Source: a virus (Duplodnaviria > Caudoviricetes). Taken from it: a stretch of 64,000 bases of DNA. Where the stretch lies: the IMG/VR virus record IMGVR_UViG_3300023048_000001, positions 96,001-160,000 of that record; one strand, given 5' to 3'. The position numbers and the translations under genes are program-made. Below the pieces are notes generated by a model. That model worked only from the letters and a program-made list of their open reading frames with translations, had not been told where the DNA came from and made no database searches. Below, piece by piece: positions 3,422-59,622 of the stretch (its first letter is position 1; each line of letters opens with the position of its first letter).

Positions 3422-4900
3422 GACTGTGCATAATGGAACTAAGCACACCACGCAACTACTTTGTTATACAGAAATCGTAATCAGGGTGACGTGCCAAGTA
3501 GTTCTTAAGAAATTCCTTAGCTTCGTCCATGCTGGCAAAATCATGCTGAAACGTTCCCCAACCCCACTGACCGTTTCCCTTGGGTACACGAATCATCAAC
3601 CTGATAGGTGCATGGTCACCAGTGCGAACACGATAGGGTGTATATTCATCTTTACAAGCCAGCATGGCTATGGTATCACCATCAGGCGTCTCGGCGCTGG
3701 GCCATCCTCGCCGTTCGAATGAACGATAACGACCAGTGGGTGCAGACTGGACTTTCCATGCATATTTAATCACGATGGTTCACCAGTTGTTCATTCAGCA
3801 CTGCACACCTTGCATCAGCCTGACGCTTATGTTCGTGCAAGGGTACGGAACCATAGCAGTCCCATGGATATGCTGAATCGACTATGTATGATCCACGGCT
3901 ACCGTATCGAATAACACGGTAGCCAGTAAGGATGCCAGAGATGTACCACGGCAGGACTTCCCACATGTTACACCACCTTGCGCGGATCGCGCGATTCAAT
4001 GATGTCACCCGTGGCGTAGTTCGTGGTGCGGTAATACATGGGACGGCCATCAACCATCTTGATACCGATGGAAGGATTGGCATTCAGGAAATCTTCAATG
4101 ACCATCTTCTGGATAGCAGCCTGACGAGTAGCGGCTTCGGTGTTGAAGACGTTGGGGGCGGTTGCGAGGGTCATTGTGTATCTCCTGTGGTGTGGAATCA
4201 TTATAACGTAATTGACCAGAGCCGTCAACAACTTTATATAAAAAAAGTCCCCTATTCGGGGACTTTGTTGATGAAGACGTGGAGTTCATCGAAGGCCGAT
4301 TCGTACAGTGCAGCCTTACAGTCTTGAGGCGTTCCGGTTTCCAGTGTCGAATCGATCTTACCATTTTCGAAAATGTCAATAGCGGACTTACCGTTACGGA
4401 CAGAGGCGATGTATCGATAACCTACATTCTCACCCTTGGCCTTGTCTAGCACGTTATTGACCATTTCGCAACGAGAGCGCAGACTTTCGTGAGTGAATCG
4501 CATGGTGCTATCTCCGGTGGTTAATTCCATTATACATGAAGCTCAACCATCGTACAAGGGTTAGCTATTCACTCCATAGAGCGCCAGCACGGCCTTCAGA
4601 TGGTGTTTGTTTGCGAATTCCAAGCGCTGAATCAGCATGATTTCTTCCACTGCGGATTCACACTTGACACCGAGATATGCCAGACCGATTGCCTTCAGGC
4701 CATTGTCCAACTGGTCCAGATTCGAACCCGGAATCATCTTAATGAATTCGACCACCATCTTACTGAAACCGTCGAAGTCGGTGGTGATGGTAAGAGCGGC
4801 GAGAGTATCAATGTTATCGGTCATGGTAGTTCCCTGTGGTGTGATTACATTATACACAATCAATCCGGATATGCAACTCTTTTTTATAATGAAATAGGTG

Positions 4901-8559: not shown

Positions 8560-8847
8560 ATGTCCGTAACCAAACAGGACGTGGCGCGCTATGCTGCGGA
8601 GAAAGGGATAGAGATTGAGGATGAAGGTAGTGGTCGAGACCGTCACATCCATGGATACTCGCCCGATGGGTTCATCTTTAAAGCCACTGAAACCCATAAC
8701 ATCGGGTGCTATGATGGTGGTCATTGGGATGGTAAGCCGGTAGACTGGACGCATGTAATGGGTCAGCTTAAACTGATTCCTTGCCCCAACTATCCCAACT
8801 GCGAAATCTGCAATGAAGAGACGTATGTCGGCCCTTCCCAACTGTAG
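8560..8847 (+). CDS. hypothetical protein with C-terminal CxxxxxCxxC motif
   Basis: TTGACA-N17-TATAGT promoter at 8499, GGAGG SD, TAG stop. Confidence 0.8.
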   Translation: MSVTKQDVARYAAEKGIEIEDEGSGRDRHIHGYSPDGFIFKATETHNIGCYDGGHWDGKPVDWTHVMGQLKLIPCPNYPNCEICNEETYVGPSQL

Positions 8848-14685: not shown

Positions 14686-14838
14686 AGGCGGAGATAGAGG
14701 GAGTCGAACCCCCAAAACAATGCTTCATCTATTAGGCATGTACTTAGCCATTTTATCACTGGTTGTCTGCGCAAACTTCCAGAGGATTACACATTGCACT
14801 GACACGCATGTCAGCAGCTACCAATTGCTTTTATCTCC
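14686..14838 (-). ncRNA. tRNA-like RNA (153 nt) with Ser-like acceptor and giant variable region
   Basis: GGAGATA/TATCTCC acceptor, G73, D-arm AGC-AATTGGTA-GCT, T-arm GGGGG-TTCGACT-CCCTC; no 7-nt anticodon loop. Confidence 0.7.
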
Positions 14839-27731: not shown

Positions 27732-27770
27732 GGTTTGACAGGAAGTTATAAAACATCTAATATTTGTCTC

Positions 27771-27899
27771 GTGGTCAACAACATGTAACTCACCGCTAGG
27801 GCGGATATATTCACCAGTAATATATGAAGGTGCGATCCCTTGAGACAGCGTTAGACGTTCTATATGAGGGTGCGATTCCTTCCTGTTGTTGTGAAGCCA
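27771..27899 (+). ncRNA. candidate structured RNA with two T-arm-like hairpins
   Basis: Follows TTGACA-N17-TAATAT (27735); closing stem CAACAACA/TGTTGTTG; two TATATGARGGTGCGATYCCTT units. Confidence 0.55.
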
Positions 27900-28008
27900 A
27901 AGTTACGGTGAAAAGTGATGCATAAGCCAAGCGTGCGTGTGCAAACATCTGATCCATTTTTCTAGAGAATGAAATCTAGCCGTAGCGGTACTAAATTTAG
28001 AATAATAT

Positions 28009-28093
28009 GCCACTATGGCGGAATAGGTAGACGCAGCAGACTTAAAATCTGCCGCCCTTGGGCGTCCGGGTTCGATTCCCGGTGGTGGTACCA
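28009..28093 (+). tRNA. tRNA-Leu(TAA)
   Basis: Class II cloverleaf, GCAGA-CTTAAAA-TCTGC, CCA. Confidence 0.95.
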
Positions 28094-28110: not shown

Positions 28111-28238
28111 GATCCCTTAGCTCAGTGGTCTGATGGAAGAACAATCATTCTTAGTGTAATCAGAATGACCTTCGGAAGTCTTAGAGCGGAGAACTCTAAA
28201 TCCTCGCGTCGTGGGTTCGAATCCCACAGGGATCGCCA
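28111..28238 (+). tRNA. amber suppressor tRNA (CTA) with ~50-nt D-loop insertion
   Basis: GATCCCT/AGGGATC acceptor, GCTC/GAGC D-stem, anticodon loop CTCTAAA, T-arm GTGGG-TTCGAAT-CCCAC, G-CCA. Confidence 0.8.
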
Positions 28239-28372
28239 AATTGATGTAGTTGCAGTGAGACACACTCCTGTAATTTAAGTAGGCAAGAATGCAGTGACTT
28301 AATACTTCTTTTTAGTGTGTATAACACAAAAGCCCTTGACGATTGTTAAGGGCTTTCTTTTTGGAAAATATA

Positions 28373-36266: not shown

Positions 36267-36608
36267 CTAGGGGATAATGTCCAACTCATCTGAGTCTGAC
36301 AAAGAATCGTAAAGGTCTGGATCAATGTTGATGCACCCATTAGTGACATGCCTACGCTGTTCTGGATCATCTGAAAACAGACGCTCTAGCCTCTTCTCAC
36401 TTGGCTTCAAGAGCCACACTCGGTGGATAGCTAGAATTGTTTTAGCATTTTCCGAGAACATTAAAACATCACCACCGTAACCCGGTAGGTCTGTATCTGC
36501 TCTAGTAACTTTAAAAGTACCTACGGGTGTCGCATCACCGACCAGTGCCGGAAAGCATTGGCTAGCAACACATAGAAGAGCTTTAGATAGAAACACAGTA
36601 ATTGTCAT
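36267..36608 (-). CDS. L,D-transpeptidase catalytic domain protein (YkuD-like)
   Basis: ALVG..TP.G.F, AIHRVW and TNGCIN catalytic His/Cys motifs. Confidence 0.8.
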   Translation of the reverse strand: MTITVFLSKALLCVASQCFPALVGDATPVGTFKVTRADTDLPGYGGDVLMFSENAKTILAIHRVWLLKPSEKRLERLFSDDPEQRRHVTNGCINIDPDLYDSLSDSDELDIIP

Positions 36609-56489: not shown

Positions 56490-57626
56490 TTATTCGGTTT
56501 CTGTTAGTTCGGGATCGTCGCCAATTCCGAACTCCTTATAATGCTTGATCATCCATGTCTTGTAGTCGTTCTCCTTCCCAAGGTAAAGGTTCATCGCAAG
56601 GCTGAAATACAGACGGTCTAGCTCTTTCTGTCCAGCAATCGCATAATCCTTTCTCTCTAGATCACTATTTGAATTATAGAACCCAACAACATACTTGTCA
56701 ATATTGCGATAAATTGCCTTGACCTTGAGTTCCATTTCGTCAATGAGTTTGAGCATATATTCATCATACGAGAAGTTAGCACGGGCATCATCGTGGCCTT
56801 CGTTCACTACCACAATGAAGCGCTTCTTAGGTGAGTTAATATCATCCTTAAGATTGTGTAGTGAACAATACCAGTCAGTCTTGTGCTTCGTTAGAACACC
56901 CTCAACACCAATGATGTAGCCCTCTACTCCCGTCTTTGCTGGAATTGAATCAACAAATGCTGGAACATCATCAACCTTATAGCTCTTTACCAAATAATCA
57001 AGAACAAGTGGATCAAATGAGACCATTGTCATTACGACTTCATTATATGCCAGTACTTTACCATCATCACGATCACGAACATGGAGAACAGTCAGCTTAT
57101 CTTCCTGATAAGGAAGAACAATACGGTGTACCGGCGAAGTCCATTCCAAAGAAACAGAGAATTTAGCCTGTTCCATGTATTCTAAATATTTTAGCAATCT
57201 ATCATTTTCGCCATTGAACAAAAATTCCATGGCAGCATTTGCCTGCTCTGAAGCTAGCGATGTTTTGCTCTTCAGATATGTGTTTCCATGGATCATGTAA
57301 GTGGTCATAATGCTACCATCCATCTTATCCATGACAATATCTGCCTTGGAGAAGTCGATGTCCATAACCAAAGGATTTTCCTTAAAATTAAAGAATTTTC
57401 GGGGTGGCAGGGAAGCCAGACGCTTCATACGTCCATCTTCCATTTCAAACATGATACCACGAGCCTCAAGAGCCGAAGGCTTCAGGAAGTCGCTATAGGA
57501 AGCTAGACGATAGTTGAACACACGGAAGGTAACACCTTCCATCTGATGTTCTACGATATAAAATGGTGAGTCAGGAGCATGAATAAGCTCCATCAACTCA
57601 TCATATAGAGTTGATTCATAATGCAT
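56490..57626 (-). CDS. rnlA: RNA ligase 1 (T4 Rnl1/gp63 family)
   Basis: FNYRLASYSDF, EARGIMFE, KFFN, motif I KMDGS, EGY and KTDWYCSLH; 378 aa. Confidence 0.9.
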   Translation of the reverse strand: MHYESTLYDELMELIHAPDSPFYIVEHQMEGVTFRVFNYRLASYSDFLKPSALEARGIMFEMEDGRMKRLASLPPRKFFNFKENPLVMDIDFSKADIVMDKMDGSIMTTYMIHGNTYLKSKTSLASEQANAAMEFLFNGENDRLLKYLEYMEQAKFSVSLEWTSPVHRIVLPYQEDKLTVLHVRDRDDGKVLAYNEVVMTMVSFDPLVLDYLVKSYKVDDVPAFVDSIPAKTGVEGYIIGVEGVLTKHKTDWYCSLHNLKDDINSPKKRFIVVVNEGHDDARANFSYDEYMLKLIDEMELKVKAIYRNIDKYVVGFYNSNSDLERKDYAIAGQKELDRLYFSLAMNLYLGKENDYKTWMIKHYKEFGIGDDPELTETE

Positions 57627-59503: not shown

Positions 59504-59622
59504 TGGCAGATGTGGATGGATTCGAACCACCGACAGCTATGTCATATTGTCCATTCCTATACGGGAGGACTCAACATTATGCACCTCTCCACGAGGCCAC
59601 TCTTCCACTGAGTTACACATCT
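59504..59622 (-). ncRNA. tRNA-like RNA (119 nt) with 5-nt anticodon loop and ~50-nt variable arm
   Basis: AGATGTG/CACATCT acceptor, ACTC-AGTGGAA-GAGT D-arm, T-arm, G-CCA. Confidence 0.75.

Follow-up and report, generated by a model that had tools for sequence, protein, structure and literature searches.

The stretch of DNA analyzed here, referred to as the window, is 64,000 nucleotides long and corresponds to bases 96001-160000 of a 174,626-bp IMG/VR record, with a G+C content of 40.7%. The record is judged to be about 50% complete, and proteins identical to the neighbors of the gene under study sit on a single 346-kb contig, which makes a jumbo phage with a genome of about 350 kb probable. 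In addition to a GOLLD RNA, the window carries about 12 tRNAs and several tRNA-like genes. A short plus-strand island of RNA genes holds the candidate described here, a tRNA gene with the anticodon CUA and an enlarged D-loop (Table 1). The candidate's own phage is called lineage A, and the same operon is carried by contigs of two sister lineages, B (loci L144 and L145) and C (loci L146-L154), which were recovered by searching the upstream 110-aa protein against a collection of 5.8 billion proteins. The identity of the neighbor protein to that of lineage A is 87% in lineage B and 75% in lineage C.

Table 1. Features of the candidate tRNA(CUA) and of the RNA genes around it, in window coordinates
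Feature	Position	Strand	Basis
Sigma-70-like promoter, TTGACA-17 nt-TAATAT	27735..27763	+	Consensus scan; -35 box and spacing conserved in lineages B and C
Leader tRNA-like RNA with two T-loop-like motifs	27771..27990	+	Conserved in A, B, and C; modules of ~40 nt gained or lost
Canonical tRNA-Leu(UAA), 17 nt upstream of the candidate	28009..28093	+	ARAGORN; Rfam tRNA, 57.1 bits; orthologs in B and C
5' part of tRNA(CUA): 5' acceptor strand, U8-A9, 5' D-stem strand, A14-G19 plus 2 nt	28111..28130	+	Sequence; ARAGORN on the insert-deleted form; covariation
Acceptor stem, 7 bp	28111-28117 with 28228-28234	+	Sequence
D-stem GCTC/GAGC, 4 bp	28120-28123 with 28184-28187	+	Sequence; preceded by U8-A9
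Insertion, 50-52 nt, imperfect hairpin of ~14 bp	28131..28180	+	Missing from the orthologs in B and C; no Rfam family
3' part of tRNA(CUA): A21, 3' D-stem strand, anticodon arm, variable loop, T-arm, 3' acceptor strand, G73, CCA	28181..28238	+	Sequence; Rfam; ARAGORN on the insert-deleted form; covariation
Anticodon stem, 5 bp	28189-28193 with 28201-28205	+	Single A30.C40 mismatch
T-arm GTGGG/TTCGAAT/CCCAC	28211-28227	+	Sequence
Discriminator G73 and encoded CCA	28235-28238	+	Sequence
Trailer RNA, ~90 nt, two hairpins, between tRNA and terminator	28239..28328	+	Conserved in A, B, and C; some compensatory changes
Strong intrinsic terminator, 12-bp stem and T run	28329..28356	+	Compensatory changes in lineage C

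Orthologs were also sought by other routes. Neither a DNA pattern nor three neighbor-protein queries recovered any from the IMG/VR viral contigs, and in a BLAST of the region against GenBank phages, the tRNA-Leu was the sole match. An anchor pattern built on the tRNA-Leu was discarded as a probe for orthologs, being too generic, with more than 119 matches. A DNA pattern run against metagenomes returned only unrelated tRNAs with the same 5' 18-mer as the candidate. These tRNAs (L021:280-367, L022:969-1055, and L023:6474-6558) have odd, enlarged anticodon or variable regions, and ARAGORN gives 4-base anticodons for two of them.

Several tRNA-like genes lie elsewhere in these genomes. On the minus strand of the window, at 14687-14838, there is a 152-nt gene in which a large domain replaces the anticodon arm, and a diverged ortholog of it is present in lineage B (L155:19030-19270). 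Another minus-strand gene, of 116-119 nt at 59504-59622, has a normal D-arm, T-arm, acceptor stem, and CCA (Rfam tRNA, 38.9 bits), with additional sequence following the anticodon region. Beside its tRNA-Lys, lineage A has an additional stand-alone T-arm module, which lineage B does not carry.

By inspection of the sequence, positions 28111-28238 on the plus strand make up a complete tRNA(CUA) whose D-loop is extended, between G19 and A21, by 50-52 nt. The D-loop opens with A-G-U-G-G, continues with the roughly 50 additional nucleotides, and closes with U-U-A21. The 7-nt anticodon loop reads C-U-CUA-A-A, with U33, a purine at position 37, and the CUA at 28196-28198, and the variable loop is the 5-nt GCGTC. 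The standard tertiary positions are all there (U8, A14, G15/C48, G18, G19, A21, G53, T54, T55, C56, A58, and C61). A sequence-only reading of this DNA had already described a complete tRNA with a 7-bp acceptor stem, D-stem, T-arm, G-CCA end, C-U-CUA-A-A loop, and A-C mismatch, and every one of these parts can be seen in the sequence.

Gene finders respond to the candidate only partially or not at all. When intact, it is not called by ARAGORN, even with the intron option (-i), and with the insert in place it has no Rfam match at the gathering score; in E-value mode, Rfam returns a local tRNA (RF00005) match of 24.4 bits against a cut-off of 29. Deletion of 28131-28180 leads ARAGORN to call a 78-nt tRNA(cta), the size that had been predicted for the form without the insert, and the junction expected after this deletion is …CAGTGGTC joined to TTAGAGC…. 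The candidate body can be aligned to the annotated amber tRNAs of jumbo phages. In lineage B, the corresponding slot holds an uninterrupted 77-nt tRNA(CUA) with the D-loop AGTGGCCTA, and both the tRNA-Leu(UAA) and an identical 17-nt spacer are kept. To judge from these features, the candidate is a genuine amber-type (CUA) tRNA gene, orthologous to an uninterrupted tRNA(CUA). The suppressor slot of lineage C is filled by a canonical, uninterrupted tRNA(UCA) of the opal type (L146:4996-5071, 74.8 bits), so the CUA anticodon is common to lineages A and B and is UCA in C.

The three orthologs were aligned and tested for covariation over 21 pairs, with 500 shuffles as the control. Of the cells, 95.2% were paired, 9 of the 21 pairs had changed on both sides, and none of the shuffles reached as high a value. 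When lineage C is taken as the outgroup, compensated changes at pairs 2:71 and 4:69 fall on the branch of the candidate itself. The pairs of the acceptor, D, and T stems are all standard in each of the three orthologs, and in the candidate, these stems have zero uncompensated changes despite a regional DNA identity between lineages A and B of only 76-80%. The decay of stems among homologs, which the sequence-only reading had named as a sign against its proposal, is not seen in these three stems; compensatory changes are found instead. The anticodon stem contains exactly one odd pair in every ortholog, and because this includes those that lack the insert, the A30.C40 mismatch is not a sign of decay. 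On the evidence of this alignment, the cloverleaf is under selection and far from what chance would produce. The discriminator base is less constant: position 73 is G in lineage A (window 28235), A in B (L144:4766), and U in C (L146:5068). Because it differs in all three lineages, the amino acid identity of the tRNA is perhaps not fixed, which suggests either that the identity of the suppressor is shifting or that its charging is independent of position 73.

The insert itself has a different history from the tRNA around it. It is missing from the orthologs in both B and C and is by this comparison lineage-specific and young; because the same tRNA in the closest relative lacks it, it is not a conserved regulatory design. 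A GTC direct repeat at its edges makes the borders ambiguous. The 50-nt D-loop insert bounded by such a repeat that had been reported is real, and against the insert-free orthologs, it measures 50-52 nt. The fold proposed for it holds in part. The inner stem TCATTCT/AGAATGA (28145-28151/28162-28168) stands, while the outer GAAG/CTTC pairing gives way to UCUGA/UCGGA in the minimum-energy fold. In the predicted structure, the duplex of about 14 bp comes in three segments and is broken by an 8-nt internal loop; at its base, a symmetric 3x3 internal loop leads into a 5-bp helix. Compared with shuffled sequence, the hairpin is not more stable (z = -0.49). With the insert present, the predicted ensemble nevertheless retains the acceptor stem at 0.87-1.0, the D-stem at 0.83, and the T-arm at 0.99.

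The 10-nt loop of the hairpin (28152-28161) starts with UAG, the codon for the tRNA's own CUA anticodon, and has a UAA inside as well; given a chance of about 10% for the triplet, the UAG is probably a coincidence. No second copy of the insert was found in the genome record or among the roughly 270 loci compared. The idea of a mobile element was dropped, as the insert and a second one found in lineage C (described below) are each single-copy in the genome and the compared loci and are dissimilar to one another.

One could also ask whether the 50 nt are part of the real genome at all. The insert is known from one assembly, in one assembly lineage only, and the identical neighbor proteins map to the single 346-kb contig, all of which would fit an assembly artifact. 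However, the insert is clean, unique, and non-repetitive and lies in a well-assembled single-copy region, and assemblers do not usually create insertions of this kind. An artifact is extremely unlikely.

What had been suggested for this locus was a switch: a protein endonuclease would excise the intron-like insert and Rnl1 would join the halves, so that a suppressor is available only when the pathway is active. The ligase named for this purpose, at 56490-57626, is a genuine Rnl1 with the tRNA-specific C-terminal domain, matching PF09511 (2.5e-14) and PF20819 (4e-12). Its gene lies 28 kb from the candidate on the opposite strand. The presence of such a ligase counts in favor of excision, as does the fact that a precise deletion of the insert gives a canonical tRNA. 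Several results point the other way. The bulge-helix-bulge motif (3-nt bulge, 4 bp, 3-nt bulge) is absent at the insert borders from the predicted minimum-energy fold, where the symmetric 3x3 internal loop is found instead. The candidate matches no ribozyme, group I, or other intron family in Rfam at E <= 10, and at 50-52 nt, the insert falls far short of a group I core in length. Across the 175-kb record, which is about 50% complete, there was no match to the EndA-family splicing endonuclease (PF01974), RNase III and RtcB were not found, and no Pnkp scored over the family cut-off, the only sign of one being a sub-threshold P-loop match of 16.6 bits. Nor is the insert conserved even in the closest relative. 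With nothing to indicate that the insert is removed, the excision switch goes unsupported, and we regard it as improbable.

A further argument for excision comes from the same operon in lineage C. There, the tRNA-Leu(UAA) (L146:4848-4975, and likewise in L147-L154) carries a clean hairpin of about 43-46 nt in its anticodon loop, at or near position 34/35, and removal of the hairpin restores the anticodon loop of lineage A. The exons are intact; compared with lineage A, they show a single compensated pair in the acceptor, and Rfam still scores the gene at 41.9 bits. A tRNA of this kind cannot decode unless the hairpin is removed, so that both a removal pathway and the death of the gene are on the table. 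The operon is followed 0.6 kb downstream by an Rnl1 gene (L146:5707-6834), and about 4 kb upstream there is a second RNA ligase (PF09414); two clean hairpin insertions in six orthologous tRNA genes are more than would be expected from random damage. Against this, the inserts of lineages A and C have no sequence or junction motif in common. The lineage-C hairpin has no ribozyme or intron family match and no other copy in the compared loci, and Pfam finds neither an end-healing enzyme nor a nuclease among the lineage-C genes around Rnl1. One could imagine a phage clade with a protein-dependent tRNA mini-intron system, in which hairpins of about 45-50 nt are excised and Rnl1 rejoins the tRNA halves. 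Its examples would be the D-loop insert of the suppressor in lineage A and the anticodon-loop insert of the tRNA-Leu(UAA) beside Rnl1 in lineage C, and the supply of particular tRNAs, the stop-codon reader included, would then hinge on RNA processing controlled by the phage. The likelihood of such a system is low.

Cutting without resealing, as in the intervening sequences of bacterial rRNA, is very unlikely. By analogy with these, a double-strand RNase would cleave the hairpin and leave a two-piece tRNA held by its acceptor and D stems; 7 + 4 bp would be left to anchor the 5' piece. Hairpins that occur sporadically in the loops of structural RNAs of close relatives are typical of rRNA intervening sequences. 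However, an intervening sequence excised by RNase III would be expected to form a continuous duplex of about two helical turns, and the hairpin, at about 14 bp and with an 8-nt internal loop, falls short of this; an RNase III of the phage was not found in the 175-kb record. Nor is a two-piece tRNA known to us from bacteria.

As far as can be read from the genome, the phage uses the standard code and does not need an amber reader. Table 11 gives a coding density of 84%, and the stops of 229 open reading frames (ORFs) are TAA in 128, TGA in 87, and TAG, the rarest, in 14. ORFs are lengthened less if TAG is read as sense than if TGA or TAA is, and the in-frame extensions past TAG are an unremarkable 1-50 codons. 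Recoding of TAG was rejected on the coding density under table 11, the rarity of TAG, and the shortness of these extensions. Three ORFs had been put forward as targets of timed read-through (3456-3773, 8560-8847, and 36267-36608), and all three do end in TAG. The read-through itself finds no backing: the extensions are short and unremarkable, TAG is not recoded, and no target is apparent. Because TAG is a rare, ordinary stop, the candidate would be accessory and an insertion in it would be tolerated.

The explanation we favor, tentatively and at somewhat short of an even chance, is a suppressor tRNA with a retained extra arm, its decoding uncertain and probably weakened. The gene, a phage amber-suppressor tRNA, would have gained a hairpin-forming expansion segment of 50-52 nt between G19 and A21 in this lineage alone. 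It would be co-transcribed with the tRNA-Leu, and its ends would be trimmed by host tRNA-processing enzymes, because neither the acceptor/T-arm half nor the encoded CCA departs from the norm. As the insert would be retained, the mature tRNA would measure about 128 nt and have a fifth arm that projects close to the elbow. This RNA would still fold as a tRNA and probably be useful, either as a weakened reader of UAG or in a tRNA-like role without decoding. A retained arm is favored because the insert lies in a permissive segment of the D-loop, the predicted fold is kept, no signal for removal was found, and expanded tRNAs occur elsewhere. Positions 20-20b, past the elbow contacts made by G18-G19, are the naturally length-variable part of the D-loop. 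RNase P and the ribosome both touch the tRNA at its elbow, and an arm placed there may block decoding. Of what the sequence-only reading had offered, its alternative of an unspliced RNA with an appended domain would be closer to this explanation than excision is.

The gene may also have been disabled recently by an accidental insertion that is neutral or mildly harmful, with an unstable or inert 128-nt RNA and a body that is intact because little time has elapsed. This is doubtful taken by itself but nearly as likely as a retained arm, and the present data do not separate the two. A disabled gene would agree with the absence of the insert from both sister lineages, with a hairpin that is not significantly stable (z = -0.49), with a TAG codon that is not recoded and has no apparent read-through target, and with the frequent gain and loss of small RNA modules in this region between lineages. 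An engineered D-loop fusion was, moreover, unstable in Escherichia coli (PMC5397188). Set against this are the location of the insert in the one D-loop segment that naturally tolerates length, the acceptor, D, and T stems without an uncompensated change, the two compensated pairs on the candidate's own branch, and the persistence of D-loop-expanded tRNAs elsewhere, one of them as a conserved cassette (L007/L016). In addition, phage genomes usually delete dead sequence.

The expanded tRNAs elsewhere were found by searching with a pattern for tRNAs with 30-60 extra nt at the same place in the D-loop, after G18-G19. Most other matches turned out to be a 5' fragment of a tRNA followed by a complete tRNA and were set aside. 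On inspection, only L006, L007/L016, and L217 survived, all of them otherwise canonical tRNAs with structured inserts of 35-52 nt, on contigs unrelated to the candidate's. The first (L006:3856-3943, minus strand) has the anticodon UCG and lies on a 238-kb phage contig; no orthologs of it were found. The second is one near-identical cassette of about 250 nt that occurs at two loci (L007:4972-5072 on the minus strand and L016:2091-2191 on the plus strand) with mosaic, otherwise unrelated flanks. The third (L217, around 4312-4440) is on a contig of a Terriglobales metagenome-assembled genome. D-loop-expanded tRNAs exist, and they are rare and sporadic. Engineered tRNAs speak against such an arm being easily tolerated. 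In E. coli tRNA-Tyr, an aptamer fused in the D-loop between positions 16 and 18 was undetectable in cells, and a fusion in the variable loop was charged and used in translation (PMC5397188).

Taken together, the candidate is better described as an apparent rare natural expansion of a tRNA than as a demonstrated genetic switch. Phage suppressor tRNAs are already known, and what appears new is a D-loop helix on an otherwise canonical one; in the literature, we found no described natural bacterial-type tRNA that combines all canonical features with a 50-nt D-loop helix. The three lineages amount to a natural experiment, in which one operon has hairpins in different tRNAs and at different positions. 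Such an operon can reveal the amount of additional structure that a tRNA will bear or else a kind of tRNA processing in phages that is not yet described, and it makes the question of whether the hairpins are retained or removed experimentally sharp. There is a practical side as well: because standard tRNA finders miss genes that bear such inserts, the inventories of phage tRNAs and suppressors are undercounted.

The candidate can be compared with several known systems. The amber tRNAs of four jumbo phages with the standard code, Xanthomonas phage XacN1, Pectobacterium phage CBB, Sinorhizobium phage Phosso, and Rhizobium phage RHph_I1_18, resemble it in the CUA anticodon, the GCTCAG...AGAGC D-arm, the GTCGTGGGTTCGAATCCCAC variable/T region, and the location in a phage tRNA cluster. 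They differ in being 73-78 nt long, with no insert in the D-loop. In XacN1, as in the candidate's phage, no read-through targets of the amber tRNA could be found (PMC5852040). The noncanonical tRNA introns of archaea, which are recognized by their bulge-helix-bulge and removed by EndA, are likewise short inserts outside the anticodon loop whose exact removal restores the tRNA (PMC4033280). In contrast, the candidate belongs to a phage of bacteria, its predicted fold has no bulge-helix-bulge, the 175-kb record has no EndA match, and the insert is missing from the sister lineage. For bacteria, a review lists only self-splicing group I introns as interruptions of tRNA genes (PMC4033280). The group I introns in tRNA genes of bacteria, plastids, and phages also interrupt the gene and hide it from gene finders, but they lie in the anticodon loop and, with their catalytic core, reach about 200 nt or more, whereas the insert of the candidate is 50 nt long, sits in the D-loop, and matches no intron in Rfam.

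Other parallels come from rRNA, from tRNA repair, and from engineering. The intervening sequences and expansion segments of rRNA are hairpins at surface loops that vary in presence among close relatives and leave the core fold untouched. The insert of the candidate is likewise a hairpin in a surface loop that varies between lineages, with a helix shorter than typical RNase III substrates. To our knowledge, no intervening sequences or expansion segments of the rRNA kind have been described for tRNA. In phage T4, Rnl1 and Pnkp reseal the nick that a host anticodon nuclease inflicts in tRNA-Lys, and they remove nothing. An Rnl1 with the tRNA-binding C-terminal domain is common to T4 and the candidate's phage, and no Pnkp over the family cut-off was found in the 175-kb record of the latter, about half the genome. 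The engineered Spinach-tRNA fusions of Masuda et al. (PMC5397188) are, like the candidate, tRNAs with a large extra structured domain, and they include an amber suppressor form. The D-loop fusion in that work is artificial and was placed between positions 16 and 18, while the insert of the candidate is natural and lies on the other side of G18-G19.
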